Of a DNA stretch of 64,000 nt, positions 15,039 through 39,576 are shown piece after piece; the first letter of the stretch is position 1; every line of letters starts with the position of its first letter. Source of the stretch: Amoebophrya sp. A120. Its lineage: Eukaryota > Protista > Dinoflagellata. The notes under the pieces were generated by a model. That model worked only from the letters and a program-made list of their open reading frames with translations, was not told the origin of the DNA and searched no databases. The DNA lies in the NCBI GenBank assembly GCA_905178155.1, contig CAJINV010000013.1:2236281-2300280 (forward strand), in the 5' to 3' direction. Both the position numbers and the translations under genes were made by a program.

Positions 15039-16903
15039 TTCGGCGGTCGCTTGACAGCTCTACTTATGTCGAAATGAAAACTGTGCCCAAGAACACTATG
15101 CAAATCTTTCTGAAGATGTACCGCGCAAAGAAGAATGCCGGCTGAGGAATTCGCAGTCCTCGTGTCTAGCTACACATGACGCATGCCACCGTCCTCTTTA
15201 CAACAGACCTGAAGCGCTATTTCGAAATTGCGAATATACCTGTCTAAGGTCGTGAAGGTGCGGAGTTATCTACCACACCAAAGGCTGATTGCGCCTCTCG
15301 TTGTAGCTTTGGGCATTTTAGTGCTATACTGGCGTATGTGTGTTGGGAGAGGTTTCATTTGGACAACTGCAGCATGGAAGAATGTTCAAACAAGTTCGTT
15401 GCGTCGAAGTTTTTTTTCACTGGCAGGCCCTACTCTCGCTCATACAAAACACCGTTCGGCCGCTGTATTTCTCTACTGTTTTCAGTATCAGTTTATTATT
15501 GTTTTCAGTTTACTTATTACTTTCTCAACCACTATTACCGTTCAACCGTGGACTGCAATTTTTCCGTCCAGGTCTGGTCAGGGATGACCTTCTACGTCCC
15601 TAGCTAGAGCAGGAATAGCACAGAAACTCGCTGAAGAGCGAGACTCGAGCGCACCCATGGAAGGACCAACCAATGCTCGCACAAAAGCAGATGATATCTA
15701 AAGACGTTTGTATTGTCCAATATTACCTATTAGTACATAAAGAGCACACTGTTAATGTTTGTTTACAACTCGGATTTTCTGCACGCAATTAATTTTCTAC
15801 TTCTGTTCCCGTTTAATGCTTTTACAGTTCGTTCACTGCCTCAAATTGAAGATCGTATCGCTTTATTCTTTCGTCTCTTCCACTCTAATAGCATTCAGCA
15901 TTTTGATCTTTCGCGACTCCTAATCACCAAGCTCCAATTTTGTCGGTTTTAGTTAGAATTATCATGATGGCCGTAGCTAACAAAAGCCGGGTCTTTCTTC
16001 AGTACTCTAACCGCTGGAAAGAAGTCCCTCGATCGAAAGACCTGCGCTACCAAGCTCCTCACACATAGTCTTTCCCGAGGAAGACAGAGCTGCTCGAGAG
16101 GGAGAAACAAGAAGGTGCTTCATCTGCTTTGCCTTGTGTAACAACGGATCTAGCTGATGTTGCGGCTATCATGATATTCTTCACTTGACCACCCAACAAA
16201 GACTTATGTATGATCTCCAGTATGTATCGCCAGCGCAGCGCCCTTTTTGCGCGCCGTTTTGTCTTCGATTTGATTTCCATTTTGAGTTCAGCTCGTTTGT
16301 CTATGGATCTTGGTTTTTAGTTGCTTGGATTCTTATCCATCGGACTCCGAGTCGCCGCATCTTGTTTCTTCTGAGTCTTCAGAGAGGAATATTCTTGTCG
16401 GTGCTTACATAGCGACACTACGCCACACTGCGGACGCTCAGCCACAGAGGTTGTCTTGGTCTCGACTGCGGTCGTGCAGGGCTTCGCTCAAACCTAGCGC
16501 GGTTTGCTGCGCAGCCTGTTTTTGATTTGGAAATGATCCCCACGGTAAAAGTAGAGTAGACCGCCTTTTCATCCTCGTGTTTGAGATTGCTCTTCCCCTA
16601 TAGAACGTCGTTTTCGTGCAAGAGCATCTTTTTGTGTGTATTGCAGCTTTGTTTTGAAGCCAGATCTGCGGAACTTTTGCTGCGTCCGGTGTAGTAACTA
16701 CACCGGACGCAGCAAAAGTTCCTTTTCAACAGGCATGCTTGGGAAAAAACTTTGCGTGAGCTGTGGACTCCAGATAGAATCTACAGCCAAAGCAGGCATA
16801 TTAAAGATTTCACACATACGTTTGACCAGATAAGAGTGATCGAGCGAAACCTAGAAGTGATCCACCTCATCGACAGCCAAGTAGCTGCGGGAAGACCAAG
16901 AGC

Positions 16904-19900
16904 ATGTCACCTGCTGAGCGTACTCCTGCAACCCAAGCCGGGCCACCGGTGCGCACGGTTCTTTGCTTGTACACGGGGGGCACGATTGGCATGCGTAAAA
17001 ATCCGGAAACCAATGTCGCGGAGCCGGTGCCGGGGTTTCTTTCGGACTGGGTGCAGAGTCTGCCTATGTTTCACGATGCGGAGTTTACGGCAGGCTTGGG
17101 ACGAAAATCTTCCAGCGCTTCTTCTTCGCCGGACCAGTCCAGCCCCTACCCTCGCAGCAAAAGCGTCTACAGGGCACCGGCCGTGAGAGGAACTACAATC
17201 GGGAGTACAACTTCTAGCAGTGTAGTTCTCGGTGATGGCAATCGGAAAAATGACCACGGCAGTGGTGCGGTACAGACTGCAACGAACGCCAGTGCAGCGA
17301 GGGAGATGAAGATGCAAAGATTTTTGGAGGAGCAGCAGAAAGTCGCTGGTGGCTCGACTTCGGAATCCCGAATAAATAAGGAACACGAAAAAGCTGCGCA
17401 CGACGACGAGCCCGAGCAGCGGCGCATGCCGCCTCGGGAGCTGATTTCGCCCTCGGTAAATTTTTTGTCGACAAACTTGGTCCATCCGCCTAGTGCTCCA
17501 CGGAGCCCGGGGAAGATGAAGTTGTCCTCTGCCGGAGACGAACAATTAGGGGACCGCGGTAATATATCTTCAATGCGACCACCGGGCGGGCAGCAGCCAC
17601 ACAGCTTGCCGTCCGCGGGTGGTGCTGCAGATCATGGCTCGCAGTTCGTTCCGCATTCTGCGTCGCACGAGCAGGCCAGCGAAAAGCGGCGCATTCACAC
17701 GACGTTGGTAGAGTACAACCCCCTGCTGGATAGCAGCAACTTCACGCACTTCATCTGGCAGGAGCTGGCGGAAGACATTTATGAAAACTACGAGCACTTC
17801 GACGGCTTCGTGATCCTGCACGGCACCGACACTATGGCCTTCACCGCAACCGCGTTAGCGTTCTTCTTCGCTATCAAAGGCAATAGGGAAACACGCGTCA
17901 CGCTGCTAGATAGTAACTATCGCTAAGTAGTAGACTGCTCACTACACGGAATCCTTGGAAAATTTCAGTCCTCGTAAAAACCAACTTGCGTTATTCTTGT
18001 GTCCACTTTTTCATCGCAGAAGGCAGTGGAGCGCCCGATGCCGCGCAGGACAATAATTGAGGACACCAATAATACGTATTCGCAGCGTGCTTTTGTCTTT
18101 GACAGAGGAAAGACTCAACAAGCCTGTGATCTTCACCGGGTCTCAGATCCCGATGGAGGAGCAAAGGAACGACGGCCTGATGAATTTCATCGGCGCACTG
18201 CAGCTCGCGGCCTTCTCGCGGATCGGCGAAGTCATGCTATGCGCTGGAAGTACGAGTCAACGTCTCAGCTTTTCAGTACAAATCCCTTGTGCGGTGGAAA
18301 TGCAGTGAATTAGAGTTAGCTTTCTGTGGTCCTACTGAAGCTTTCTATTTGATGCTGTTATGCAATGCAGCACTTGATTGCCAAGCCCGCACACGGCTGG
18401 AGGAGGTTGTTTCTTGTTCTTCGCTACAGAATTCTACTATGTACTTCCTGCTTGCGATGCATACCGCTTGTACTTTGACAATGTGCTTTACCGCGGGTGC
18501 CGCACGACCAAAGTTCACACGTCCTCCCCCCGGGCTTTTGACTCGCCAAACTTGCGGCCGCTGTGTATGGAAAGGAAAAGACGCCCCTCCCCATATCAAA
18601 ACGGAGTTTCTGATGCTGGATTTGTGTACACAAATCAGCTGTGTATTGCTGGAAGGCATTGCGGCCAGATACCCAGCCTAGGTAGAGGCGTTTGGCTCTA
18701 GTTGTTCAGCATGGCAAACGGCTCCGCTTTAGGCCCAACAGCATGACAAATCGCCTTGTCTTCTTGCAGCATAAATGTGATTTGTGACCTCAAATCAGCA
18801 GCACAAATCTTCGGAAACATGCCTTTTCAATATGGGGAGGGGGGATTTTTCTTTACGATGCTGTGTTTCGCGGGGATTCGGTACGCGTTCACGTCGGCTC
18901 TGCAGACCGGCGCGAAGAACAGAACGTTTGGGCTGACGTACGAAAATGGAAAAGTCGTTGCGGACCAACAAAAAAAGGAGGTGAACAGCACGACTTTATT
19001 CAGTGCGGACCAACAAAGCGAGGAGGGTGGTGCGAAGAGAAGGCGGACCTCGGGGCGCGTGAGTTCTGTGGCGGTGGTCGATCCGCCTCCTCCCGCTCCT
19101 TCTACCGATGGTACTGCAAGTAGTACGGGAGCTGCGCCGGCGCAAGAACCGCAAGTCGTATTGCCAACCGCCGGCGAAAATGCCTTCCATCAGCAAGACC
19201 TTCGCCTGCTGCCGCTGTTCGAGCCCCGGATCAGCATCCTGCGCATCTTCCCGGGCCTGTTCACGACCACGGCCGAGCTGATTCACGGACTGAAAGGACT
19301 GGTGCTGCAGACTTTTGGGGAGGGGAACGCGCCCAACAACCAGCCGTACCTGCTGAACACGCTGCGGGACGCCATCGAAAAGGAGCAGATCGTCGTGGTG
19401 AACGTGACCCAGTGCCTCAAGGGCGGCACGCCGGCCGGAAGTTACGCCACCGGGGCGGCGCTGACCAACATCGGGGTGTTGCCTGCCTACGATATGACGC
19501 CCGAGGCGGCGCTGGTGAAGTTGGGGTGGCTACTCGGCCTGTACCCGGAGCTCGAGGACCGGAAAAAGGATATGCAGTGGGCAAACCAGAACACAACGCG
19601 GGGATCGACTGCACTTAGACATTTATGGCAAAGTATGCATGTTTTTCAGGCGCGGAGTAGAGGCGTATGTGCATGAAGATGTGGCCACGTGTGTGAGGTA
19701 TGACCGATTTTCACCTGCTCGAGCGCTGCATCGGGCAAAGCAGATCTGGAAGTTTAGCAATTTTACTTTTTCGCCGGTTGTAGTCGTACTCGCAGTTCCT
19801 GTTCGTGTTGTCCTTTCCATATGCGTCAAGCAGCTCTTTCAGGAAGATTTGCGTGGAGAACTCACGCAGGTCTGGCAAACGAATGGACACCGAAACAGCC

Positions 19901-19923: not shown

Positions 19924-21349
19924 CACTGGGGTGATGCAGCTGGGGGGATGATTGAAAAGAGAGTTTGTGTACATAGGGACATGTTGTATGTAGTGAGGTC
20001 ACGAACGTTCTAATCTAGCGATCTTTTTGCCAGTCATTACGCAAAACGACCGGCAGTTTTCAAGCGGCCGGAAGTGTTTTTGGGCATAAAAAATTTCCAA
20101 TTATCAAGCGGGCGGGGCTTTGCCGGCAAACAAGCCCGGTCGAAAACTATCGATCCCCGCTTGATAAAACGACGCAGGGGAGCCGGCAAAAGGGGCGCCC
20201 TTCTGAGGCGCCCACCGCCTTGGTTTCTGGCGGTTTGGGGCGCCCAAAAAGGGACGCCCAAAACGCAGCACTCCGAAAAAGACAGCGAATCCGCATAATA
20301 TGGGCCTCATTTTGGCCTACATTCGGGCCTCGCAAAATACGCCACCAAAATCCGCCACTTCAGAGGCGGACTGAAGGCCAGAAGATGCAGCATTTTGCCA
20401 AACAAAAACAAAAAAAGAAAGCCCGCCAAAAGCAAAAAGCCAATCCGCATGCTATGGGCCCGATTTGGGGCTCCCAAGGGTCCGACCCTGGCGCGGGCCC
20501 TGGCGGGGCCATAGCATGCGGGGAAGGTTTTTAAAATCGACACTAAATGGAGGCCAGCTCTGGAGTGAGATTTTTAGCGACTGCCGTGCCGTCGTGCATA
20601 ACATTACTCACGATGGCATGGCCGGCAGAGAAGTTGCGTCTTTTTTGGCGTGAAGACAAAAAGACCGCCATGACCTCACTACCTCCGCGGACGCGGCTAT
20701 TATTGGCAATAGGTCGAGACAAAGCGAAAGCCTTTTTTCTGCAGTGAGCCCGTATAATCGCCCCACATGAGTGGTTCATGGCCAAACTACACCCAGATTC
20801 TTAACACAGTTGCTTCTCGCACACGAGTGCGTCGATTCGGCACAAACACAAATATTTACCTGAAAGCAGAGGACAGGTGAGGTGGCGCGTTTTTCTTTCT
20901 GTTCTGTGGGGGGGCGACTTCTGCATCTGCTTGCAACCTTACGATCAAAAGCTTCGCCCGAGTCTCCGCTGCAGTATGCGATTTTTTTCTCATCTCGCGA
21001 GAGGTAGATGTCTGGGTTTTGTTTGCCGCCTTTTTAAAGAAACTCTGAGAGCGAGGACAATACGGATTCGTCGTTGTCGTTTTTTGAGTGACGAACGCCA
21101 GAGGAAAAGTCATATACATAAGGTAAAGTGATGCAACATGGGAGGACTTCTGTACGAGCATTTCGTACGAAAAAATCATTGTGTCATCACGATGTAAAAA
21201 TCCTACCCTGCTGGCGGCACTCCTGTTTCTTCACTAGCTGCCCCGATCCTCCCCGGCTGGCGAAAGACCGAGGGCTGCGAGTTTTACCGTTCAGACCGAG
21301 CGCGCCGGCGATCCAAATAAACTCCGCATTCAGCGTGCGAAATCACACC

Positions 21350-22714
21350 ATGCTGCGCGCGGCGTTGTCTTCCGTGCAGCCAAAAATCTTTTTCGGGATC
21401 GGGGGCGGGTCGGATGTGGATACGGCGGAACTCTTGGAGAAATACTCTCTGACCGTGCAAGAAAAACAATTTACTTCTTGCGAGGGAGCAAATGAAAGGG
21501 AAACTACCCTACCATCTAAAACCGCTAGCACACTGGTACTGCTTGCGCTGGGCGCGGGCGTGAAGGCAGACGGAACCTTTGATGCGGAGCAGACCAAGGC
21601 AAAGCAGCTGCAGCGGGGATTCACAGTTGTGGACGAGGCGTTTTGGGGAGCAGTGGCAGGTGCGAAAAGTAGTAGCGGAACAAGTCGTGGTTTGGGCAGC
21701 GATTTAGCAGATGAGGGAAAGAAGAAAGACTACAAACCACTACTGTACTCTGTCGTGAGGAACAAGGAAGTATCGTCAGAGACGGGCGCGGAGAACGAAG
21801 CTCCCCCACAAAACACAAACAACATTTTGGGTCTTGTTGTCGACCCCTGCTGTGCGGAAGAAAGCGCGATGATCTTTGCCGACCTTGTTACCTGGTTGCA
21901 GAAAGGCTTTTCGTCGCACACGACCTCACCGAATGTCCACGTCTTCGCCGTGGACACCGGTGGAGACGTCCTCGCCCCCCTGTTCGAGGAGAAAACCAGC
22001 GCCGATCTGTGTTTAAACGCGAAAATGTCCGCTTCATCAGACGAGGACGATCTGGAGCTGCGCGCGGTCCAGAATCCCACTCGCGACGTGGTCCTGGTGA
22101 GAGCCAACCAGCTGTATGTGCCCTTCGGGAGAGGGATGGGCGATCTGTCCTACCACCAGTTCGGGCCGGACAACTCGAAGCGCGACGAATACAGTCTGGA
22201 GCTGCTCGTTGCTGCCAAAAAGTTGCAACCGTTTTTCATGTCCCTTTGCGTGGTCGGGCCCGGCGCGGACGGGGAGTCGAGTGTGTTGGGTGTGAAAGAG
22301 ACTAGGGAGAAACTGTTCGGAGAACGACGAGATACGTACCTGACGGTGGAGTGCACGACGCTAGTACCGGCCCTTCTCTCCGAACATCCGGAAGAGCATT
22401 TTTCGAAAGTGGCAAAGTGGCGGGTCCCGGAGGAGGGTAAAACCCCTTGGATTATCCGCAAAGCGTGCGACCGGCTTGGTGGTCGGGTGGAAGATGAACA
22501 GGGAGAGAACTTCCACGTGGAAATAAAAGCAGAGATGAGGGAGCATCAAATCATCGCGTACCGGGGCAGGAAAATGCGGCGGACAGCCGGAGAGGAGAAA
22601 GACAGTTTATTTAAATGCGTTATGGACGCGGCGATGCTGCGGGAAGTGTGGTTTTTTGATGACAGGATGATCTTTAAACTGCTCGGGAAGGAAGCGATGG
22701 GGAAAGCGGAGTGA
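21350..22714 (+). CDS. DUF1152-like protein (intronless)
   Basis: Motifs FGIGGGSDV, AVDTGGDVL and VGPGADGE occur in the order I recall for DUF1152. Confidence 0.6.
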   Translation: MLRAALSSVQPKIFFGIGGGSDVDTAELLEKYSLTVQEKQFTSCEGANERETTLPSKTASTLVLLALGAGVKADGTFDAEQTKAKQLQRGFTVVDEAFWGAVAGAKSSSGTSRGLGSDLADEGKKKDYKPLLYSVVRNKEVSSETGAENEAPPQNTNNILGLVVDPCCAEESAMIFADLVTWLQKGFSSHTTSPNVHVFAVDTGGDVLAPLFEEKTSADLCLNAKMSASSDEDDLELRAVQNPTRDVVLVRANQLYVPFGRGMGDLSYHQFGPDNSKRDEYSLELLVAAKKLQPFFMSLCVVGPGADGESSVLGVKETREKLFGERRDTYLTVECTTLVPALLSEHPEEHFSKVAKWRVPEEGKTPWIIRKACDRLGGRVEDEQGENFHVEIKAEMREHQIIAYRGRKMRRTAGEEKDSLFKCVMDAAMLREVWFFDDRMIFKLLGKEAMGKAE

Positions 22715-23502
22715 GCGGCTTGTCAATTACATACAATATCCACGTACTAAAATGGACAGGTCGCGAGCTTGTAGTGAAGAAACTTCTAAGTGATCAAGTT
22801 GTGCAGCTAGTGTTGATCAACATTCACAACAAGAGGTGTTGGTCTGAAAATAATTGCACTAAAAGCCGAGATTTGCGGCTGAGCTACAGGATGCACGTCG
22901 AGGTAACGCCGCTCTCGTGCGTCGCGTTCGTGCGAAAAAGCAAATTGAGTCTCGAAATCTTTAGATCCACACGACCCGCAATAACATAAAAAGAGAAATC
23001 AATGCCGTCACATCAAGATCTGATCAGGGAAAAAGTGCAGGTTCTGAAAACGTGATTGTTTGCACGGAAGTTCACAACTCCCCCGATCCCAGACATTCTG
23101 TACGATCTGTTGTATCAGTCTTTGCGCTGTACTTTAGAAAGACGACCTGTCAGCAAGATCCAAATCACTTCTCTTGAGACATAGACACTAAATCGCCTGG
23201 AAGGCAGTTCTAAATCGTTCAAAATCGTCCACCGTGAAATTTAAAGATCCGAGAGGAGGTTCAACTGAAGATCTAAACCTTTACTTGAAGTTCGTAAATG
23301 TGGACTTCCGAAGCTCCACTATAGCGCCATGTCGAGGAGAGCACTGCTGCTACAGAACTATGTTCTCACCATGGAAGATCATCACTCCGACCACCTGAGC
23401 AATCCTTCTACGTTTTTTTTTCTATCCTCACAGGGAAAACACTTTTTACGGGTGTTTTAATCTACGGGTCTTAAGCGAAGTCGATTCAACACAAAACGCA
23501 AG

Positions 23503-24487
23503 ATGAAGGGAGGTTCCTTTGGTCGCGGCGCCAAGCTGCAGATGTCTCTGGGTTTGAACGTCGCCGCGCTGATCAACTGCGCCGACAACAGTGGAGCCCG
23601 CAACTTGTACATGATCGCCGCGAAAGGTATAATTGGCACTTTCTTTTTCGACTTTAGATTTGCATTTTCACGTCCTATCTTGTGGTGCTGGTTTGATGTC
23701 TGTGGCTCGTCAGTGCGCATGGAACTTTTATTCTGAAACTGCTTTCTGATATGTCGTAGCGCGATGAACCGATTTGGATTTAGAACATACAAGCCGAACA
23801 AATAACTCGTACGGCATGCCATTCTTATGGATGACTTGCGATCCACGCTAATTGAAAATTCCAGGTTGCGGTGCTCGTTTGAACCGTCTGCCGAAGGCCG
23901 GTCCGGGTGACATGATCCTGTGCTCCGTGAAGAAGGGGAAGCCAGAGCTCCGTAAGAAGGTCCTGCTCGCCGTCGTCGTGCGTCAGAAAAAGGTACATTG
24001 GTTTTTCTAATGTTTCAGCATTTGTATGTTTGCACCACTACTACCCACTTTCAGATTTGGTAAAGAGGGGCACCAGATGGGTTTTAAAACTTCTTGAGCG
24101 CGTACCTCCTTTGGAAGGAGGAACATCACGATATACGAGATCGTCTTCTACAGCGAAAAACACGCTCCATTCGGTTGCGAAGTTCCATAATTTTGCAAGA
24201 ATCTTCAAGTCGTCAAGACGTTTTCGCGGTTGTCTTGCCTGGAGCCATACTCATGACCTTATACACGTTGTTTCTTTCTCCACAACATACACATTCTATG
24301 TTTCATTCCAACAAAACAACAGGCGTGGCGCCGCAAGGAGGGTGTCTTCATCTACTTCGAAGACAACGCGGGCGTGATCGTGAACGAGAAGGGTGAGATG
24401 AAGGGATCCGCCGTCACCGGCCCGATCGCCAAGGAGTGCGCCGAAATCTGGCCCAAGGTTGCCTCCGCTGCCCCGGCTGTCTGCTAA
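23503..24487 (+). CDS. RPL23: 60S ribosomal protein L23 (uL14); exons 23503-23626, 23865-23992, 24323-24487
   Basis: [57 protein letters not shown]; two GT-AG introns. Confidence 0.98.
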
Positions 24488-25149
24488 GTTGTTTTGTCGC
24501 ATCTTCAATGTCTTTTTTGATCATGATATGGCAAAGCTGCTGGGAAAAGAAATTCTCTGTGGAAGGACGCTGTTCTCCAAAACTGTTCGCGACGCCTCGA
24601 GACTGCGCCTTCACAAATGAAACCTGTTTGAATCGACCAGATTAAGACTCACACCCTAGTAAAAAGAAACGCTTTCGAGAGGAAGCGACGGAGCGCAGGC
24701 GCCTCGTTGCTCTAGTAGCTTTGGTGGAGCAGGTGCTGTGTGGCATCTGGCTCTGCAGCCGGTGGGAATCCGTGTTCTGAGATCATATTATGCTGGAAAA
24801 TTCGTTCCCTGAGAGTGCGCTTTTGTTCCCCGCAGAATCATCCGTTTTTCGGTCTTGCAGAGGTACTCCGAATTCGAACGTGTCGCTGATCACTTTTGAA
24901 TATTTTCATCCCATTTTTGTTTCTTCTCGACGGAGCGAACACGAAGACGTGATATCATGTTAAATCCAGGAACCGCAACCCAGGCACATTTTTCGCCTTG
25001 CGCACTTCCCCGGGGCGGGACTTACCAGTAGAAAGATAGTAGGCCTCAGCACCAAAGCCACTCATGTCACACCTTGCGCAAATTTAAAGATATCGATTCG
25101 GTTTCAATTTCATCTTCTGTAACAACCCACAATTAAACCCGCGAAAACC

Positions 25150-26211
25150 ATGCTGCCTCAGCGTTCGTCGCAACTGCAAAAGGACTGGTTCCAGATCCTG
25201 ATTGGCCTGGTCTGGTTCACGGTCGTGCTGATCATGCTTTTGTCCAAAATGAAAGCGATCCAAGACGTGCTCCTACTCGCCTTTCTCTGCGGAGCCACGG
25301 CCGTGCAGAACGCCGAGCAGTTGGTGCCCTGGCTGGTGGCGGACAAAACGAAAAAGTTCGACAAAAATTTTATCGCCGTTCGGAAGCACGTGCGATTCGA
25401 ATGCCTGTATTCCTTTCTGATAACCTGGAGTTTGCTGGAGGTCGTACATCTGTGCGGCACGCGGTTGGAGACGGAAAGTTGGCTCTTTTTCGGCTGGACG
25501 TTCTGCCTCGTCACGAGTGTGTTGTACCACAGCGGCTTTAAACTTTTCGGACTTTCCAATGCCAACCAAACATGGCTCTTTAACCCTGTAATAACGCTGG
25601 CGCTGCTGCACGGAACGAAAAGCACGGGGAATTTGGTGATATCGGACATTCAGGCGCAGATCTACATCGGGTTCCAGGTATAGGATGGCAACTTCTCGCG
25701 ATTTTTGCATTCTATCGTGTACATGATGTCTGTAGAAGTTCGCGTTTTTTTTTCGCTTTTTTGAGTTCCGCCGAAGAACCATCGGCTCCATAAAAATTTC
25801 GCACGCGCACTTCAATTGCTCAAGCCTTTTCTCCAAACTAAGGTAACAGGCATGGTTCTCGGCCTTTTACTCCATTGTGTGCGGACTTCCGGCACCGATT
25901 ATCTGTCGCTCTTTCACACACTGGAACCAAATTTCCTCGCTGTCACAGAGCTCGTGATCGCCTGCGCAATCAGCTACCTTGTAGCCCGCATGCAGATAAC
26001 AGCGAGCGAGAAGGCGAAAGGTGAGGGGAGGCGAAATGTTATGAACAAAAACAGCGGCTTCGGCAGCGGAGTAGAGATGAGAAATTTTGCCAGTGTAGAT
26101 CATGCCGGGAACGGAACGACAGGGATAGAACCATCTTCCGTACAACTTCAAGGAGCGGGGAGCAGCGCAACTGTGATTCCTGGAACTAGTGAGGAGGCGA
26201 AAATTGACTAA
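25150..26211 (+). CDS. Multi-pass membrane protein, weak MIP/aquaporin-like segment; GT-AG intron 25678-25842
   Basis: Several hydrophobic helices; FNPVITLALL...YIGFQVTGMVLG resembles the first NPA region of MIP channels, but no second NPA is seen. Confidence 0.55.
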
Positions 26212-26899
26212 AGTTATGCAGATTTGGCGCTAGTAGGCCTGTAACATGCGCCGCCCGCTGTTGTACGATTGAGAAATGAACAAGACCGGAAGATTTGGCA
26301 CAGTCTCTACAGCCGAAAAACGCCCGATACTCCACCGATGTACTTCTTGTAAAAAATTCGTGTTCGGACAAGCGGCCACAATCGCTTTTAAAAACATACA
26401 CTCTGCGGAACCTCGTTTGCTCACTTGGTTTCTATTCTTGTACCAAAGTGAGTCAGAAAGGTCTTCCTAAAGAAAACCCATCAGCGTCCTCTACACCGGA
26501 TACGCGTTTCTCATTCCTACGCATGGCCGGCTGTGCAAGCGCTTGAAACAATTCGCTAGATTCATTCACAAGAAAACCTGGGCGAGGGCGCAAGCACCGA
26601 CTCAAATTCAAAATTCGGTTCTATTCTGTCGTTGGGTTTATTCAGTATTTCCTGCTGCTGAACATGGTTTCCTTTCTACACGTCGTTTCGAAGCTGATTT
26701 CAGGTCTCCCCCCGGGCCCTTTTGGCCTTTAAGTACATGAGTAGATCGACACGGGTAAAGATGTTGTGCTGGTTTATCTGTGATGTGTCCAAAGCTTATG
26801 TCGATGTAGCAGCCGCAAGGCTGTCCTGTAAATGCTCTACCATTTACCGGTAAGAATTTTCTAGCCTTGTCAACGTCACCCTGTCCGCCAAATAGAAAA

Positions 26900-29198
26900 A
26901 TGCTGGCCTCTCTCCCGCTCCTGTCCCGGCAGGAGGTGCAGCACCAGTGCGAGGTGAAGGGGAAGAAGTGGATCATTGTGGACAACACGGTTCTCGATGT
27001 CGCACCGCTGATCAACGACAAGGATGGGGCGCACAAGGGTGGCAACGTCTTTGCGATCGGCCGGGACAACACACACCTGTTCCACGAACTGCACGCCAAC
27101 TTGCCAATCATGAAGTCCGCGCACCGGCCCGACTTGCCCTCCATCACCGCGCACATCTTCGAAAAGGTGCAGAAGCACGCGGTGGGAAAAATAGGAACCG
27201 GGTCCTCTGCCTCAACTACTTCCGACGTGCCTCTCATCTCCCCGAGCCACCGGTTCTGGCAGCCGTCGGAGCGACGGCCGCCGTTTTTGGAAAAGGTCAA
27301 GACCAGCATCGGGGATACAAACGTGGCCGCGGAGCTTGTAGCAAACGCAGTTGCCGGTTTGACGGACGTTCAGCTCCGCGCATTTTACGCGATTGTCGGG
27401 CTCCTGACCGCGGACGCCGCCGCGCAGCCGACGCACTGGAACTACAAAGTGACGTATTACCACCGAAATTTGAAGGACCTAAACCGGTTTGAAACCCCGG
27501 AGTTCTTGTGCCCCAGTCAGAACCAGTACTACGAAGTGCCCTGCGGGTCCAACAGCTGTTTCGGTGACCAGGCCTTCGTGATTCTGGAATCCATGGCGAG
27601 GTGCGGGAAACTGGAAGTGGACGATTTGGTGAAACAACACGTGCTCGCGTTCGGACCGAACACGAGCAACTACGGCCCGCTCGGGAACACAAACGTCCAA
27701 TCCGCGTATCCTGCTGCAAAAACGTGTTTGTCCCCGACTTTTGAGGTTTGCGTTTTGTCATGCGCCTGCGCATGATGTGGAAGAGAGCCACTTATTTCCA
27801 CTCGTGCTTTGTCGTGCTGTGCAGATATGCAGAAACAACTCGCTTTATGTATTGCGGCCGTCCTGGCTGCGCCTGCGTACGGTTACGCGTGACACTGCGC
27901 TACAATTGTCTACCCCAGCTTCCTGATGTGTGGCAGAAAGCGTGCCGCAATACTTGCCTCGGGGGTGTGTGCGTTTTCACTCAGGATACCGTGGGCGATT
28001 TACCGATCCGCGGGCCGTGGCGACACGGCAGCTTGGATAAGTTTCTGCGGAATGTGACGATCTTGGGGAAGAAATTTCCCACCTGCGGGTCGAATGACGG
28101 AAGCTCGGACTGCTTCATTCGGGCGGTTCCGGTTGTTGCGCTCCACGCCGGGAGGGAAGACTATGAGAGTGCATAATCATCCCCCTTTCCTCTCGTCGTG
28201 TTTACAAACAAACGCATGAAGAGGACCAGCAACACAAGCAACGACAGAAATGTGGCCTCTGCGTGACAAATCCGCGCAGGGTTTGTTGTACTGTCTGAGT
28301 TCCGGATGTTCATGTTCTTGATGCAGACAGTCATCATCGGGAATGAATACTTATCTGCGTTTGGTAATAGTTTTGCACAACACAAATGAGGCGGACGGGA
28401 AGGGTTTTTTTGCTCTTTCATACCGACATGCTGGAGCAAGTGGCGGCGGTCGTTCGCATCACCCAGAACAATGCGCTCACCGTCGCGTACGCTTGCGCGG
28501 CCGCGCGGATTTTGGAGCAGATCATTCTTTTTGGATCCACGGGAAATCAGGCCGTGAAGCACTGCGCCGACGCGCTGCTGTCCACTTCGGCCGGACAAAG
28601 CAGAACAAGTCAGAGGGCGAGAGCCAGTTCCGGGTTGGATTCCGAGATTGGCGAGCAACTTGTCGAGCTGGAGGAGCAGCTGAGCGACATGCCTTACCTG
28701 GACGGCGTGCGCGCCTACTCCGGCGGGCAATACAACGCCGTGACCGTGAGCTGAGGACTGCCCAACTCGTTTTTGTTGCCGTGTTTGCGGGTCACGAACG
28801 ACACCGTCGTTCGAGCTGATAGAAGTACTGGTTCGCTTGATGGAGCAGAAGGGGTAGAAGTTTCAGTGCAAAAATTGCGTCGAAAAGCCACTGCTACTTC
28901 TTCTTCCGCTTCCCCTTCGCTCGTCTCTGGAGAGGATTTGTTGCAGGCGAAACTACTTCGCGAGAAGCTGCAAAAAGGCAACCGAGAAATTCATTTCGCA
29001 GACGCGGTGCGTCAAGCCATGCTGGCGGGCGGCTGATCCGCATCGCGGTGCGGGCTCGTTGGCGCCTGCTATGGCGCTGCTGCGGGAACGCTTGGGGGAG
29101 GTAACGGTCTTTTCCCCGTTCCACTTGACTGGATCGCACAGGTGCGCGACGGAAAAAAAATGTTGGAACTTGCGCGGGTGCTGGTGCTGCTGCGGTAG
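26900..29198 (+). CDS. SELENOJ: Cytochrome b5 domain fused to selenoprotein J / crystallin J1-like ADP-ribosylglycohydrolase; two in-frame TGA (28752, 29034)
   Basis: b5 motifs WIIVDNTVLDV, HKGG, GRDNTHLFHELH. SelJ-like motifs ADAAAQPTHWNY, GDQAFVILES, LPIRGPWRH, VRITQNN, VS*GLPNSF, AGG*SASR, GACYGA, PLDWI; frame runs to TAG 29196-29198. Confidence 0.88.
27707..27988. mobile_element. Introner family D (282 bp), TSD CCG(C/T)G
   Basis: tatcctg...aaaacg / cgtttt..caggata; removal gives NVQS(A/V)GDLPIRGPWRH. Confidence 0.88.
28162..28422. mobile_element. Degenerate introner (261 bp)
   Basis: tatgagagtgca / tgctctttcata; flanks aagac/ccgac; removal gives HAGREDMLEQV. Confidence 0.8.
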
Positions 29199-29520
29199 GC
29201 AGAAACGCTTCAAAAAATTTCAATATGTGCACTTTTCTAGAAGACTCAGGTTTTGTATTAGCAGGCAATTGGTTGTACAATTATTCTCCACAAGCACGAC
29301 ACCGCAAAGCTTTCTTTTTCCAAAAGTCGTTATTGATGAAACAAAGTTTGGGCCAGTAGAAGAAGAGTCACATCATCAGGTCGCGTGTGCAGTAGAGACA
29401 CTGATGCGATCTCCGCTACTCCGTCACTTGTAGGAGCGCCATTTGCAGTTTTACCAAACACAAGCAACCTCACTTCGCGAATCGGAATTCTGAGCTCCGG
29501 GCGGTAGAAGATACTTCTAT

Positions 29521-29582
29521 GCGTGAATTTGTGATCCATTTCGGAGGGGCAGACCGCTCGCTCCGCTAGTGGTGATTTTTGC
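29521..29582 (+). promoter_or_regulatory. Candidate SECIS-like hairpin
   Basis: GUGAU (29531) and UGAU (29573) flank a stem CCAUU-CGGAG / CUCCG-AGUGG. It lacks the canonical apical AA. Confidence 0.3.
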
Positions 29583-30559
29583 TTTCTTTCTTAACATAGA
29601 AGACACCACTGGGCAAAACATGATTCCGTAGTGACTGAGTTCTTGTTCTACTATGCGTCGTGCTGTTAGTACAGAAACAGAGCAGCGCGTGCTCGTAATA
29701 ACTCGTACGAAAGATGATTTTTATTTGTCTCATGTGAAGCAAGGAACAAAAAATAGCCTGCTTTCGGAGAAGAAGAAACCCAAGCCGCGAGGACATGAAG
29801 TGGCAATGTCGCATCGATATCATTCCTTCAAAATGAACTGGAAGAATAGCAACAGTCGCAGAATAGGTATGGTTTCAGAAACGGAAAAAGCACCACGTAA
29901 TGAAAGTGGATGACTGACGCAATGGCGTGGTGCGAACTACGGTCGATCCCAGATTCCTTTTCCCGATCGTGAGGGATTATTACTGCCGTGGTGTAGTTCT
30001 CACACGGTGATCCGGAGCACGTGCTGCTTTTCATGACTGTCTCTAGAGCGACAGCTTCTCTTGGCAAGATTTCGGTTTTCGTGCCGAGGCAAGAATGTCT
30101 CAATAGTTTTTGTGCTGGCTCAGATCCTGCAGGGAACAGAAATCAATGATCCAGGTTCTAGAAATAAAATGGAGAGGAAAAACTTCTGGTCCTTGGCGGA
30201 GAGTGATGAGGCGATGGAGAAGCAATAGCAAACTTCGAGAATTTCGTAAAAGTGCATGAGGAGCCCCGATCTGACAAATCATTCTTGGCGCAGTGCCAGC
30301 CGAGCAAAGTCGATCATTTTGATTCCATGCGAATTTGTCTGGTTGTTACATACCTTCATGGCGAATTGGGATTCAAAGTTGCACACTCGCAGTTTGTTGC
30401 TTGTCAAGAAATTTAGGTAGCGGCTTCGTGTAAAATTTAAATTTTCATATAAGTACTACTCGACTTTCTTTTACTCTCTACGAATTGGGACTTGGTTTTG
30501 TGTCGGGCGAAAAATACTGTCCTATCCGACGACCAACGCTGACACCACAAAAAATAACC

Positions 30560-31108
30560 ATGTCCCGACGACTTAGTCGCACCCCGGTGCTGGTTCTGCT
30601 CTTGGCTCTGACCGGGCTCTCCGAAACGGTTCTCCCCGTCGAAGCTGCTTCGGGGGTCCCGCCAAGCGGTCTTCTGTCGCGTTGCCTTGGTTGCTGGAGG
30701 CCGAAGGCTCGGGTACCTTTTGTGGAAGCGGAAAATGGGAGAGACCACCTGATTATGAACCAAGAATCTTCTACGCGGTACGGTGGGAAAACAAGAGCAG
30801 TCGAGTTGGCGCGTCCGAAGGCAGCCGCCACAGGCCGAACCGTACGACCGGGCAGGAAGTCACAAAAATCGACATTTTCGGCGCAACCTGACCTGCAAAA
30901 TCATACTCTTGAAGCGCGTTGGAACCCCCCGCTCCCAGCCCAGCGAAGGACAAGCAAAAGGCCGGCAAGGAATTCGAAATCCAAAGGAATGAAGCGCGAC
31001 TCAAGAATGAAGTCGCTGCATAGGCTTCCTCCCATCGCGGAAAATTTTTTAGAGAGCGACAGCGAAAATGAGAACGACGCTGATGGCACTACCTCGGAAA
31101 TTGTATAA
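30560..31108 (+). CDS. Hypothetical signal-peptide protein
   Basis: MSRRLSRTPVLVLLLALTGLSE leader, basic middle, acidic tail; single ORF. Confidence 0.5.
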   Translation: MSRRLSRTPVLVLLLALTGLSETVLPVEAASGVPPSGLLSRCLGCWRPKARVPFVEAENGRDHLIMNQESSTRYGGKTRAVELARPKAAATGRTVRPGRKSQKSTFSAQPDLQNHTLEARWNPPLPAQRRTSKRPARNSKSKGMKRDSRMKSLHRLPPIAENFLESDSENENDADGTTSEIV

Positions 31109-32057
31109 TGAGCAGCTGAGTACCATGGCGCCGCCAGTGGTTCTGGTTCATTTTCTGGTTGAAGCAAGAAGTTGTCTTTTTTTTTCATGTATGATTTCAT
31201 TGGACTGCTGCAACTGCAACAAAGAACCTTTTCTCGACGCACTCCGTAGAAGTTGTGATGCTGATGATTCAGAATTCACGACCCATACATTCTTTCCGTT
31301 TCTGTTTCCAAAGCATGGAGACCATCTATTGCTTGTGGCATGTATGAAGAAAAAGCACCGATAGTATTGATTTCCTGACCTCGGGCAACCGAGATTCCAA
31401 GGGAGCGCGCGATGCTGGTGCAGTGGTAGCTCCTGGAGTTGTTGTCTCAGGATGAAAAACCCTGAGTGAATAATCACGACTCGTCTTGTTCTTTTGTTGT
31501 TCATCTATCTGTTACAAGCTGTCTCCGGAATTTCTATGTTCTTACAAGTCGAACGCAAACCGGTGGTCACCGACTGAGTCTTCTTTCTTTTCGAATCTTT
31601 TTCTTTTGTCTTCTCGGCAAGAGCAGCCCCGTGCCGATTTCTCGGACTTTTTTTCTTTCTGCGTCTTGTCCGGCAGTCGATCTGAAGGTCGGTGTATTTT
31701 GAGATGCTGCGATCGTGTATCTATGTGTGAACAAAAAACGCTCCGTAGCCCCAGCTGCACGGTGCTGGAATCTGTACTAACGCTGTAGTCCTGAGTTTGT
31801 TGTTTCATTTACTTCGGTTCCAGTTTTTTTTTGTCAGCAGGACACCAGAGTAAACTTGTCGACTTACAACAGTTACGAATACAAGTTCGTCGTTTCTCGC
31901 AGAGAAAAGCGTTCAAGAGGATGTGCATCAAGTAGAACCCCGTGCTTGTTTGCTCGTTGTAGCACAACGAACTGGAGGTGCTGTCTTCAGTGTGGATTGC
32001 TGCCGCGAAGTAGTTGCGTAAGGTAGAACTACACACGAGAACTGAACGCTGTTCGAA

Positions 32058-35000
32058 ATGGAAACGGCAGCCAGTCGGCGCAGAAGCACAAACAGCTCGG
32101 CTTCATCACCTCGGTCGACAGCGGCGGCAACAGCGGTCGCCGTCACGAACAAGGCACCGCTGGAGTTTGCCGACCCGGGATCTAGATTGCGTCAACACCC
32201 GGGACAAAAACACGAAACAGCACAACTTCTCGTCCACGATAGGTTTGTAGACGAAGCACGGAGCAGTTCCTTTACTAGTCGGCGTACAAGCGGTCGTGTC
32301 TACTTTCGAAGTGGTACTCCAGCTTCTCCCAGCACCGCGCGCTGGTTTTTATCGAAGCTGCCTGAGTTCTTGTATGCAACTGCAAAGAAAGCCGCGAAGA
32401 AATGGAGGCGATTCGAGTGTCAACTGCACTGGGAGAAATATTCTTCTAGGGAGCAGGACGAACCAGCAGGAAATAGAAATGCATGCTCAAAGACGGATGG
32501 GCGTTGCATTTTACTTTCCACCCGGCCGCGGTGGCGAGCGCGCAGACGAAGACCGGACAGAAGTTTTTGCCAAGGAGGTGATAGTGCAAGCGACGGAGAA
32601 GAGTGGGGTAGTTGCAGTAATTCCAGTGCAACAAGAAGACGCAGGTCAAAACTTAAAAATGCTGTCGATAAAGAACAACCACGTGTTTGTAACAACGTCG
32701 AAAATTATAACCCCAAGGCAAGAAGAGCGATTTCCATTTCTCCTTCATCGTTATTCGTCCTTCTATTCTCGGCCCTGGTGAAGATCTCGCAACTACTGCA
32801 CTTCGCAAGTGTACTCCTTCCGGCCGGAACGACCGCTACCGACCGGACAGGTGTCGATGAGGAGAAGCGAATGTTTGCCGCAGACAATGCGATCAATTAC
32901 GCCGAACAAGATAGCACCTCCGCAACAGCAGGTTCATCGAACAGCGCTCCTGCGATACCCGCGGCCCAAGGTTCTGCTATCTTCTACAAAAGTGTCCCCA
33001 CCACCGCACGCCAACAGCTGGTGGCGCGACGCCTTCATTTCTTCACGTGGTTTGATTTATCAATGGCGAGAGGCAACAAGGTCCTCGGCTGATTTTTTTG
33101 TGGCCTAGGCTTGGGGTCAATATCTCCGAATCACTTGACTCTGAAGGACGGTTTGTCAATATCTCTGAATAGTCGCTTTTGTTTGACCTACTAGGGAGTC
33201 GTCCAGGGTGGGGACGTTTTTGCACAGAATACTACGATCCTCCACCCTGTCCCCAGGTTGCGCGGAGATCCCGGAGATCGTAGCGCTCCAGAATTCCATC
33301 CAGCGCATGTCCCAGATGACCACGCAGATGCAGGACAGCGAGGATCCCATGCAGTGGAGTGCGAAAGTGTACGACAAGTACCTGGTCGAGCAAACGCAGC
33401 TGTTCGAAAAGTGTCCCGGGGGCGTGCTCACCTCGCTGATCTACCTGTCCATCGCCCAGGAGACGGAGCTCAAGTACGACTTGCTGCGGAAGGCCACGTA
33501 CCTCCTCTTCTCCGAACTGCAGGAAAGCATGAAGCCGGATTTAAAGCGCGACTGGCCGTCGGTGAAGGACGAACTGATCCGTACCCTGTACGCGAACACG
33601 GAGTCGGCGGAAAAGCCCGGGCTGGTGATTCCCAAGAAGCTGCGTCTTCCGGTCGGGACCGACGTTTCTGAGGTTGTGGACCGCAATCTGAAGTACGAAA
33701 ACACGCTCACCGTCCACTTTTCCTCCATCATTTTCTATTACTGGTACTCGTTCCAGGACCAAAACTACGCCACCCACGGCGGGCGCGCGGTGAACGCGAA
33801 CGCCAACGGGTGCGTGTGTCGCACGCAGTCCTGGTGTCTCCCCTACTGGGTCCGCGCGCTGACGAACAGCAGCATCGACATCTGGCTGGTCGGTCGCGAC
33901 TACAACAAGACCGTGTACCGGATGGACGGCAAGGGCTGTTTCGTGTCGCTGCAGCAGGGCCTCACGCACTACTCGTTCATGGGGAAGGTCAGTAATCCGC
34001 AGGAGCCGCAGAAGCAGAAGCCGAAGGAGTTCGACCTCATGTTCATCTTCGAAGTGAACAGCTTCATGCACGCCGAGGCGCGCGGCGGGATTTTGTATGC
34101 ATTGTAATGAATCTGTCTTGGTCAGCAATTATGACTTTATGACGCTGATGAATTTTGAACGAGTCAAGAACAAGGAAACCGTCAATTTGAGTCAGTGTGC
34201 CCACGCAGGAGGGCAAGTTTTATGTCAAACTCTTTCTCATGACCCCCGGTGCGCATGACCACAAACTGCGTCGTGGCACGAAAGGAGAACATATTCCTGC
34301 ACAAGTCTTACTGGTCGATCTCCGACCGAGACAGATTTGCAGTTGATATTTGCGCGAAGAAGACCATTTTGTACCCGACATTTCACCTGTCGAAAACGCA
34401 GATTTCGAACTTCGAGCAGCAGAAAATCTCGATCCTGAAGGACGACGAGGTGCTAAAGCCGCCTAATCCGTGGTTCCGGGAGTTACTGGAAGGTCGGTAC
34501 GCGGTGGGAAGGAATGTGCACGAAATCATTGAGGACGACGAGCAGGAGCTGGCCCGGGTGTACGGGATCCAGAATGTTTCCGCGTTGCCCTTTCCGAACC
34601 AGACCAAAGTGGACGAGACAGATCCAAACCGGACCATCGTGCTGCCCTACCCGAATGTGACCGCCCCTCGGATCCCGAGCCGGATGCTGCAATTCCCGGT
34701 GAACAAGAAGGCGCTGGTGTACCCGGCCGTGCTGAAACCCGCCAAGGGACAGCTCGCCTTCTTGAACCTCTTCTACGAGCACAGCCTGCGGACCTCCAGT
34801 AGGGGAACGGGCGGAACTGCCGCTGGTGTTGGTTCGGCGATATGAAGTTTGCAATAAAAGTGTCGCACTACGAGATGTTAAAATGAAATTGCAATGAATT
34901 GCGATTGTTAAGAATGTTATTCAGAGGGAGCAAAGGAACTTGCGACACAGATTCAGATCACAGGACGTATTTCGAATATGCAGGGCCGCAATTTGTACTT

Positions 35001-35907
35001 GTAGTGGCACTACTACGACTTCCAATGCGACACTTTTTCCGCAGGATACGCAGCAGCTGCCGCTCTGCATAAATCGCACCACCACCTCGAGCCGGCGTAC
35101 CAGCTTCCCGAGGAACTGCGCGACACGCACATTTATTTCGTGGGCAGCTGCGGCGGCAACGTGACGTACTGTAGCCAGACCGTGAACCGCTGCGCGCAAC
35201 TGTTGGGGCGGAAGGTGGGGATCTCCTGCACGTTTTTGAACCAGTTGTCGTCGCGGGAGATGGCGTTGGTCTACAAAAACAGCGCCGGCACCATCCTGTA
35301 CAGCAACAACGACTGCAACCCGCGGGTAATTTATGAGTCGATCATCATGAACAAACCCTTCTTCGCCACCACGGAGGCGCAGATCCCGGGCAAGGTCCAG
35401 CACTTGGGGCACATTGTGGACTACGCCGAGCCGAATTTCAACTTTTTGCCTGCGCACAAAAAGCGAGAAGAGGTAGTAACGGAAGACTCAACATCATTGT
35501 TATCCAAGAAAAAAAGTGTGTAAGGGTTGTGTAATACAAACTTTCTTGGATGAACAGTATCACAAATGTGTTCTGCATGACAGAGAAAACCTCTCATGCG
35601 CAGCCAGTACGTGAAAACACGTACGAAGCAAACCTCTGATGCATGTCCAGCGTGACCAGTGCAAGTGTCTTTCATCCTCTGCAACACAGATTTATTGTAC
35701 AGTTTTTTTCTTGCATAAACATCTTCAGCTGCGAATGAGGACGGCGCGGCGACGGAGGAGGTGGTGGAGGAATTTGTGCTCTTCCTGAACGCCATAGGGA
35801 AAAACATGTGGGGTGACCGGCCGCGAACGTTCGCCGAGGAGCACTTGACAGACAGGATGGCCTATGGAAAAGTCGTAGAGTTCATAGAAAAACAGTGGTG
35901 GGGGTAG
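32058..35907 (+). CDS. Membrane-anchored protein with C-terminal GT-B (GT4-like) glycosyltransferase domain, 5 exons
   Basis: Hydrophobic segment SLFVLLFSALV; LVYPAVLKPAKGQ and SNNDCNPRVIYESIIMNKPFF resemble nucleotide-sugar binding motifs; ends KQWWG*. Non-canonical introns near 33058, 34096, 34841, 35501. Confidence 0.6.
33058..33231. mobile_element. Degenerate family D-like introner
   Basis: Right end gggtggggacgtttttgcacagaata matches family D; left end decayed; the plus-5 rule does not restore frame. Confidence 0.5.
34841..35048. mobile_element. Degenerate introner (208 bp)
   Basis: tat...aaaagtgtcgca / tgcgacactttt...gata; frame restored. Confidence 0.7.
35501..35717. mobile_element. 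Introner family E (217 bp)
   Basis: tatccaagaaaaaaagtgt / acagtttttttcttgcata; frame restored. Confidence 0.8.
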
Positions 35908-36931: not shown

Positions 36932-39576
36932 ATGGTGCAGCAGCATCACTCGCACAGTTCGCACGGCGAGGATTTCGGCGACGAGCATTACCGAAATGAC
37001 CACAGAAGTCACAGGAGAGGGTCCGGCGGACGCCACCGGCGCGGAAGCCGGAGCGGTAGGAGAAGCGCAGACACGAATGGTAGCAGTAGACACGGAGGTC
37101 ATTACCACCGACAAAATAAGCGCAGGAACGGCTACAACCTTCGTGCGTCGACGAGGCAACATTTCAGTGCAGGATCCTCTTCACACAGTCATCGAGATCA
37201 TGATGATTTTTACGACTCTGCTTTCGAAGACCCGTCGCTAGAGCAGCCTCTGGAACAGGAGCACTCGTTTTTGCAGAAGCTGCAGCACAGCACTGATGTC
37301 GAGAAGAAGAGAGAGGATCATGACGATGCCTCCTTGCAGCTAAAAAAAGGGCGTACTAGTGGATCTACGACTTCCGGTGGAACAAGCGCATCTTCGTCAT
37401 CCTCTGCCATGATAAGTACAACACTGAGTTCTAGTACCCCATCGAGAAACAACCTCCGCGGCAGCAGTAGCATCCACGCGGCGTCGTTGGTGCAGAAGAC
37501 CGCTGTTTTCGACGGCGGGCAAAACAATCCGCCGGCACCAGCTCCGGCAACTGCGGGAGCGGCGGATGGCGCTGCACCCGCACCGGCTCCGGCTCCAGCG
37601 TCACCCGCCCCGGCGCCGTCAAGCGCCGCGGAACCGACGGAAGGGGGAACCACGTGGTTTGGCTGTTTCACCGGGATTCTTGGTAGTCCGACGTACTTGG
37701 CCGTGACGATTGCAGTGGTGCTGCTCGTATTACTGGGGCTGTATTTCATCAACTGGAGAAGGTTTGGCTTAGTGAAACGGCTTTTAAGGTTCCTGCACTG
37801 GGACAATATGCACCAGGGAAAAAAGTGTGTCAGTGTAAGTCTGTGAAGATGCTGCAGAGAATGCAACTCGGTTGCAATTGTCATGTTCATCCATCAGTAG
37901 AGCGTGTTTATTTCATGTACGCTTGCACGTACCAGCAGCAGCAGCGCATGCCAAGTTTTCATTTGTCATGCTACTCAGTAGCAAAAAAGTTCTGCTAACA
38001 CAGTTTTTTCCCTTGATACACAAGTACGGGGATTTGGAGTTAACTGTCACTGTTCACGACTTGCAGTTGGAAATGCAGCGGGCCATAACCTCTGGGGACG
38101 CGACATGTATAGAAAAATGCAAACTAGAGACCTGCTTTCACTTCTTTTGCTCGATCACGTATATTCGTATTGTTTGGACAACCACACTGTGCCTTGTTGA
38201 TGAACGCAGAGAAGTCGTGATGTTGAAGAAAAAATTTTTCTTCAACATCACGACTTCTCAACATATCAAAACCGTTTTGATAGCGTTCCAAAAAGAACCG
38301 CGGCACTACTTACTACAGGTGCCGTGAAGATTGTTGCGGGCGGCCAGGAGTACTGGACCGAGCAGAAAGCGCACAATTACCACTACGAGCAGGCGTTTGA
38401 GGTGTTCGTACCGCAGGGCTACCGGAAAATTGTGGTCGAACTCTGGACGGTGTCGGGGTTTTTCAAGTCGAAGCACCGCACGGCACAGCGGATCATCGAT
38501 ATTCTGGAGGTGGTGGTTTCCCGCCGCCCCTACGGCTGCGTGCGGAAGGAGTGGTTCAGCCTGATGAAAAAGTCCGACGGGAGCAAAGACGCGGAAGAGT
38601 AAGTTTATTGGAAATTCTTGCATACAGCCTGCTTTTTTGTAGAAGTTGAAGAATTTTTGTATCATACTCCACCTGGTGTGTACTTTTTACGCATGATGTG
38701 TCCTGCCCGGTGTCTCGTGCCTCGACAAATGTTGAGTACGGCAGCTTTGCACTTCCTACTGAAACCAAACTGTATCAGATTCAAATCCGGCAAAGCGCAG
38801 CTTTCGATCCAGTACTCCGAGGATGTGCACAAAATCTCGGATGAGAAGGTGCAGATGCTCGAGCGCTTCACGGAGCACCCGGTTTCCCAGCCGATGAGTG
38901 CGGCTTTGTCGAAGGCGGTGGCGGGGCACTTGGAGAAAAAGATCAACGGCGTGGACGATTTACTGCCCATGATCGGCTCGTGCTGCGCCTGCGCCATCAA
39001 GTGGGTTTCCAAGTTTGGCTTTCCCAGGACAAAATACGCGGATGTGTTTTTAGCGAAAAACGCCAAGGGAAAAGATACCTGGTAATTTAGAAGGAGCTGG
39101 CTCTACCACTCACTGCATCTCTTGCGGCTTCGAATTTTTTTGCGCGCAAACTAAGTACTCGCACAGCTTCCTAATTCATATGCAGCTTCAGGTTTGAAAG
39201 AAAAGACGAACCTTTGCGCACTCGAAAAAATAAAAAAAGGTACTTCGCGATTTTCGAGTCCGAAAGCGCGCGGTCCCGGCGGTCGCTAACGGAGACCAAG
39301 GCCAGCGCGTCACTTTTGACCATTTCCGCACTTGTGCCGGATCCCAAAAAGCCGGGGTACGTGTGTCTCCAGTACCAGCCCTCGAAGAAGGCGGACATTC
39401 ACGATTTGTACTTCCAGGTCAAAGACGACAGCTCGAACACCATGGCAAGCATCGTCTGGATCGAAGCCATGCACGTCATGATCGAGTGCGTGCGGCGGCT
39501 CCGCATGCTCCAGCTCGAAAACAAGCGGAAGGAAATGGTGAACTCCCCGGTCGCGGGGCCACCCGCGATCGAGTAA
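36932..39576 (+). CDS. CERLI/RASP-like C2 + PH domain protein with transmembrane helix
   Basis: TM helix, then LLRFLHWDKYGDLELTVTVHD, VKIVAGG, YEQAFEVFVPQG (C2-like) and LLTISALVPDP...VWIEAMHVMI (PH-like). One introner plus GT-AG introns 38107-38318, 38599-38778, 39082-39239 (or 39191). Confidence 0.65.
37807..38018. mobile_element. Introner family E (212 bp), TSD (G/C)ACAA
   Basis: agggaaaaaagtgtgt / acacagttttttccct; removal gives WDKYGD. Confidence 0.85.

Follow-up and report, generated by a model that had tools for sequence, protein, structure and literature searches.

Structure and transcription of the gene

The window analysed here, a stretch of 64,000 nucleotides from Amoebophrya sp. 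A120, carries on its forward strand a SelJ-family gene of three exons at 26900–29198, comprising 581 codons. Once joined, the exons share one frame that runs through a TGA at 28752 and another at 29034 (codons 434 and 528) to the terminal TAG at 29196–29198 and holds no further stop. Exon 1 (26900–27705), defined by transcript contigs and the spliced frame, begins with the ATG at 26900 and encodes a cytochrome b5-like domain together with the start of the ARH/SelJ domain. Exon 2 (27993–28158), supported by contigs, the spliced frame and a 36-row protein alignment, carries the GPWRH and SDCF motifs as well as Cys309, a cysteine in 36/36 alignment rows. Exon 3 (28425–29198), placed by spliced contigs, contains both TGAs and the TAG; it is followed by a 683-nt 3′ untranslated region (29199–29881), whose end is set by the X1 contig. 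The sequence-only reading, which had reported a SelJ-like frame with two TGAs at 28740–29198, was right about both codons and the TAG, but it covered just the last third of the gene and missed exons 1 and 2 along with the cytochrome b5-like domain.

Spliced contigs from runs X1, X2 and X4 (X1 and X2 being one sample) remove 27706–27992 and 28159–28424 and keep both TGAs, matching the window without a single differing letter or gap. The 5′ ends of the transcript contigs fall at 26702–26709 and the 3′ ends in these three runs at 29859–29881. The "RNA" label of the three runs is a tool's guess, supported by the fact that their contigs are spliced. Coverage by X5 is confined to parts upstream of both TGAs, and the gene lies outside the coverage of the raw-read runs X9 and X10. 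A 9161-nt contig from X6, whose run type is not on record, spans 26438–35598 with 0 differences from the window; because it is unspliced across 9 kb, we read it as DNA. Both UGAs are retained in these spliced transcripts, which speaks to the cDNA check that the sequence-only reading had proposed. Sequencing error or RNA editing at the TGAs was rejected, since spliced and unspliced contigs show 0 differences.

Both introns are non-canonical and introner-like. Intron 1 (27706–27992) has GT..GT ends and a terminal inverted repeat, GTATCCTG/CAGGATAC, and its joint is seen in X1, X2 and X4. Intron 2 (28159–28424), with a joint in X1, X2, X4 and X5, has a 3-nt direct repeat, GAC, and an imperfect inverted repeat. 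Introners with non-canonical ends and inverted repeats are an intron type described for Amoebophrya (PMC7789003). An intron across or between the TGAs was considered and rejected: X1, X2 and X4 have no joint there, and we found no clear repeat pair. The interval between the two sites contains a low-complexity in-frame insertion (approximately 28794–28990) that is kept in the spliced contigs.

The database protein for this gene, P0002, is named as an Amoebophrya sp. A120 protein, in keeping with the alveolate origin proposed from sequence. It is 433 amino acids long, is identical to the spliced frame throughout and ends at the first TGA, the kind of truncation that had been anticipated from standard gene calling.

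Conservation of the two UGA positions among relatives

Two homologue searches yielded 36 proteins (P0002–P0037). Of the 35 homologues other than P0002 (a count that also excludes the three cluster mates P0038–P0040), 32 end at the residue just before the first UGA position (site 1), the exceptions being P0013, P0014 and P0037. The type of stop codon behind such cut-off records is not visible in protein data, and we therefore compared the DNA of relatives. Ten of 113 pattern matches in JGI metagenome contigs encode relatives (L001–L010).

Site 1 (28752–28754) lies at the conserved U.LP position of SelJ, and its codon is TGA in 10/10 of these loci, which bears out the assignment of the first TGA to the canonical SelJ Sec site. 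At site 2 (29034–29036), within a GG-U-SASR context, four of the nine loci that reach the position carry TGA (L002, L003, L009 and L010) and five carry a Cys codon (TGC/TGT in L004–L008); L001 ends before it. L004 and L005 are near copies and L009 and L010 close relatives, so that, apart from the window, two TGAs occur in three independent lineages. Retention of both TGA codons spans 43–57% identity. The two sites are 94 amino acids apart here; eight of the loci have a spacing of 32–53, and L009, with an apparent intron, has 71.

We also examined the residues at both columns in an exhaustive search, using 65 of 67 representatives (P0002 and P0033 were left out). The site-2 column contains C 43 times, D 14 times, E and R once each and W in none, with six unaligned; the site-1 column contains C seven times and W once (P0048), with 57 unaligned. 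Cys homologues are thus present at both positions, in 43/59 aligned representatives at site 2 and in 7/8 at site 1, where alignment A5 also has them. The TGAs accordingly fall in Cys/Sec columns, the outcome by which their reading as Sec was to be judged.

Protein sequence is also conserved beyond the TGAs. Compared with L003, 12 of the 13 residues after the first TGA are the same, nine of them through different codons, as are 26 of the 49 after the second, 16 of them through different codons. Shifted-frame controls against L003 gave 12/48 identical residues (one by a different codon) and 16/48 (four by different codons). Family-like protein sequence after both TGAs, as first noticed from the frame itself, is therefore in excess of chance by this comparison.

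The second TGA had been proposed as an extra Cys-to-Sec change. Such a change is not peculiar to this organism, as four distant loci carry TGA there too. Nor is a second Sec new as such: algal SELENOJ sequences in print include a two-Sec one from Alexandrium tamarense ESTs (Jiang et al. 2020, PMC7539508). In that dinoflagellate protein the first Sec is common to algae and animals; it is a single EST case, compared here by its main-text description (PMC7539508), and its second Sec site may differ from ours. Here the second Sec codon recurs in five sequences across a subfamily, versus that one EST case.

These comparisons indicate that the A120 gene product is very likely a double selenoprotein. 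We consider it highly probable that ribosomes insert Sec at each of the two in-frame UGAs, and a stem-loop at 29531–29576 probably directs this decoding.

Alternative readings of the UGA codons

UGA is reported to encode Trp in an ambiguous code in Amoebophrya sp. ex Karlodinium veneficum (PMC6394959, PMC12005148), so that a code of this kind is present in the genus, and the representative P0048 has W at site 1. Yet W occurs at site 2 in 0/59 aligned representatives, and conserved Trp codons here are TGG. Counts of TGG are five in the SelJ coding sequence, seven in a spliced neighbouring gene that has 0 TGA, and 86 across 19 long frames. Within this one window, these 19 frames and the two spliced genes show no conserved Trp position written as TGA. 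Matching TGAs also occur in GC-rich, unrelated loci whose Trp codon is TGG. Because Trp is written TGG here, a UGA=Trp code does not fit; TGG usage and the site-2 column largely refute this reading, to which we assign a negligible probability.

Somewhat less remote, although still improbable, is read-through of the UGAs with insertion of Cys or some other selenium-free residue, by leaky decoding or by a code of the Euplotes kind, an example of non-selenium UGA read-through. The richness of both columns in Cys would suit it, as would the status of the stem-loop as a candidate. Against it, the remaining 12 Cys of the SelJ coding sequence are written TGC or TGT, L002, L005 and L008 are each followed by a SECIS-like AUGA stem, and TGA terminates 9/19 long frames, a weak point given that many of these are exon fragments. 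A genuine stop at the first TGA would give the 433-residue protein of the public annotation, or the gene could be a pseudogene; in favour of this, querying for homologues with the 72 C-terminal residues turned up no candidate of 39–126 aa. However, amino acids are conserved with synonymous change past both TGAs, the same TGA positions recur in distant loci, and the part downstream of the first TGA completes the ARH fold (model range 150–503). We therefore regard termination as very improbable and continue with the reading of both UGAs as Sec.

A SECIS candidate in the 3′ untranslated region

The stem-loop at 29531–29576 (+) emerged from a home-made scan and folding. It has a GUGAU...UGAU core and an 11-bp helix with a mini-stem, lacks an apical AA, and has an inner stem of -17.7 kcal/mol. 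It is the sole scan match in the 683-nt untranslated region; shuffled versions of this region gave any match in 10/300 cases and an equally stable one in 0/300, at a threshold chosen after seeing the match. Scanning the whole window on both strands returned 13 matches in 128 kb. As a 70-mer the candidate folds no better than shuffles (z -1.17, 28/200).

Rfam SECIS models found none in 28700–30600 at E 10 and none window-wide at the gathering threshold. The AUGA-core stems that follow L002 and L005 likewise escaped Rfam, and the one after L008 reached a score below gathering only. When four SECIS candidates were aligned with MAFFT their cores did not line up, and we therefore built no covariance model. 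The element at 29531–29576 is a SECIS candidate with modest support, not a demonstrated one.

No tRNA genes were found within the 64-kb window. In another Amoebophrya, tRNA-Sec and three selenoprotein genes (selT, selM and selO) are reported (PMC6394959). Separately, a stable GUGA-core stem at 39538–39594 (+) overlies the terminal part of an ordinary frame that has no evident Sec codon, and probably arose by chance.

The ARH/SelJ domain and its former active site

P0002 matches PF03747 (Pfam, E 2.8e-18) and contains SelJ-type motifs. Those shared with SelJ and J1 crystallins are ADAAAQP.HW, GPWRH, TQNN, U.LP and GG[C/U]..SR. Among Atlas structure clusters the closest bears the name Selenoprotein J; searching the Atlas by features produced no match of use, and phmmer of P0002 against the PDB returned nothing at E 0.1. 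For structural comparison we modelled L002, an intronless two-TGA homologue, from a 35-row alignment in place of the full spliced A120 protein (pLDDT 91.9, pTM 0.92). The model has an ARH fold (Z 35.4, rmsd 2.3, 299 aligned), with which Foldseek agrees, and together with the Pfam match it upholds both the SelJ family assignment and the ADP-ribosylglycohydrolase fold put forward in the sequence-only reading. DSSP places single-residue bridges at 414 and 450 of the model, adjoining U413 and U451, with the bridge partners unspecified.

The L002 model shares its fold with ARH1/ARH3, DraG and MJ1187 (Z 27–35), and the Sec sites map to the active site of these enzymes. Profile alignments put site 2 on the leading Asp of the GGDTDT motif of ARH. 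Cys220 (27557–27559, + strand), within SCFGDQ and Cys in 33/36 rows, matches the leading Asp of [T/S]DDT, a register that is weak for 1t5j alone and the same in 8za7. Site 1 aligns with the Ile of ARH3 GNGI, 43 residues upstream of the site-2 Asp. The mapping of the two sites onto ARH3 comes from a profile alignment that contains gaps and has about 15% identity. In coelacanth ARH3, Ile260 and the Mg ligand Asp303 lie together at the distal ribose (PMC6309922); their separation is likewise 43. Because sites 1 and 2 map to this Ile and Asp, both Sec are predicted to line the former ADP-ribose hydrolase active site.

The [T/S]DDT and DTDT motifs carried by ARH1/ARH3, DraG and MJ1187 supply the Mg ligands of ARH, and loss of one ligand is described as abolishing hydrolysis (PMC6309922). 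At the aligned places the A120 protein has SCFG instead of SDDT and USAS instead of DTDT. With the acidic Mg ligands lost, Mg-dependent ADP-ribose hydrolysis is predicted to be absent.

SELENOJ of ray-finned fish, sea urchin and amphioxus and the J1 crystallins (PF03747) have the same fold, with Sec at site 1 in SELENOJ. The A120 protein differs from them in having a predicted second Sec where they have Cys, an insertion of about 55 amino acids between the sites, and the extra N-terminal b5-like domain.

An N-terminal cytochrome b5-like domain

This domain covers about residues 10–70 (26927–27109, + strand) and was identified from Pfam, profile matches and the homologue model. The Pfam PF00173 match to the A120 protein (E 0.005) is below the curated cut-off, and that of the homologue P0035 is at the cut-off. 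Profile matches are to b5 and flavocytochrome b2 structures. His45, within HKGG (codon at 27032), and His65 (codon at 27092) are both present in 29/29 covering rows, out of 36, and are the predicted heme ligands. In the L002 model the domain has a b5 fold (Z 8.7, rmsd 3.2, 84 aligned). With a modelled b5 fold and two candidate axial His, heme binding is predicted.

In flavocytochrome b2, sulfite oxidase and Ncb5or a b5 domain likewise stands at the N terminus and carries an HxGG motif and another His; in these b5 fusion enzymes the partner is a flavin or molybdenum domain rather than the Sec-bearing ARH fold of the A120 protein. The main-text description of Alexandrium SELENOJ makes no mention of a b5 domain (PMC7539508). 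We found no description of a b5–SelJ fusion in the full-text literature, a search whose coverage leaves out most subscription papers. One homologue of this architecture, P0035, has in addition an N-terminal ankyrin-like, Cys-rich segment.

Members and history of the subfamily

The b5-like domain is common to a whole SelJ subfamily, whose named members come from Amoebophrya A25 and AT5.2 and the dinoflagellates TGD and MGD. We built a tree of 50 rows from the N-terminal part of the domain, 34 of them without a known site-2 residue, omitting L005, L006, P0003 and 58 of P0041–P0105 that lack the anchor motif. The b5-bearing group has support of 97/91, with two-TGA rows at three spread places within it. 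A weak branch (89/60) has all five two-TGA rows on the same side, and the placement of the two-TGA rows is compatible with a single old gain of the second Sec.

L009 (2880–4009) and L010, on a long branch in the tree, represent a second, distant SelJ subfamily that has no visible b5 domain and carries TGA at both sites.

Proposed function

Taken together, these observations describe a transcribed, three-exon SelJ gene whose two UGAs likely encode Sec, and whose product would be a 581-residue b5–ARH fusion; we think it probable that this is a redox enzyme and not a hydrolase. Sec434 and Sec528, together with Cys220, would border the former ADP-ribose pocket and switch between a diselenide and a two-selenol state, and the b5 heme would supply electrons. 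The substrate would probably be a nucleotide-like or ADP-ribose-bearing molecule, and one-Sec SelJ proteins may have an Se–S pair at the same place. Given two Sec, we see about an even chance of such a diselenide/diselenol couple in a repurposed pocket fed by the b5 heme. More tentative, and somewhat less likely than not, is that this widespread, unannotated subfamily of marine protist proteins is a heme-fed diselenide oxidoreductase of non-thioredoxin fold, with its diselenide set in a former ADP-ribose hydrolase site.

Both UGAs could be Sec and the protein still have another role. The selenols, with Cys220 and Cys309, might bind a soft metal instead of Mg, making an altered-specificity hydrolase or a metal-binding protein, or the protein might be a structural pseudoenzyme resembling J1 crystallin. 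Sec528 and Cys220 do occupy metal-ligand positions, the Asp at site 2 is kept by 14/65 relatives, and catalytically reduced ARH folds are found in large complexes (mt-SAF23). SELENOJ, called functionally uncharacterized, is suggested in the same source to be possibly structural (PMC13134290). The b5-like domain points to electron transfer rather than to either role, as both His are present in every covering row, and a structural role hardly explains why two costly Sec codons would be kept at the identity levels given above. We consider these roles unlikely, though not negligible, and prefer the redox reading.

Fusion to a predicted heme domain and two Sec at an ancestral active site hint that SelJ proteins as a family are redox enzymes. 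If so, SelJ, long linked to crystallins, would act on ADP-ribose or NAD-like substrates, and the b5 fusion and two Sec would give the uncharacterized SELENOJ family a concrete, testable function. Few known proteins carry two Sec that are widely separated in sequence. Here the two Sec are partly precedented and for the heme fusion we found no precedent. As nearly all homologue records stop at the first UGA, the second was never seen and the subfamily has stayed hidden in databases. The gene further gives this parasite a very likely selenoprotein; the main text of its genome paper nowhere uses the stem "selen".

Neighbouring genes and repeats

The gene immediately upstream (24968–26374, +) has two exons and encodes a hydrophobic protein of 298 aa; its first exon has no Pfam match. 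Contig depth for this gene and the SelJ gene is 82 and 84 in X1 and 80 and 83 in X2, with other neighbours far lower. Co-expression of the two is possible, contig depth being a poor measure. Farther upstream, 23500–24490 is presumably a ribosomal protein L23-like gene. Pfam matches identify a weak DUF1152 at 21122–22714 and an asparaginase gene at 16826–19676. Downstream they identify a CFA20-domain gene, with long WD-like frames after it (44707–54300), and a glycosyltransferase family 20 gene, trehalose-phosphate synthase-like (56290–63436).

High-copy repeats occupy 20001–20700 and 35500–35700, where X6 coverage is very deep and divergent and Rfam gives no match. Hundreds of X10 reads match 20042–20103 only in part.
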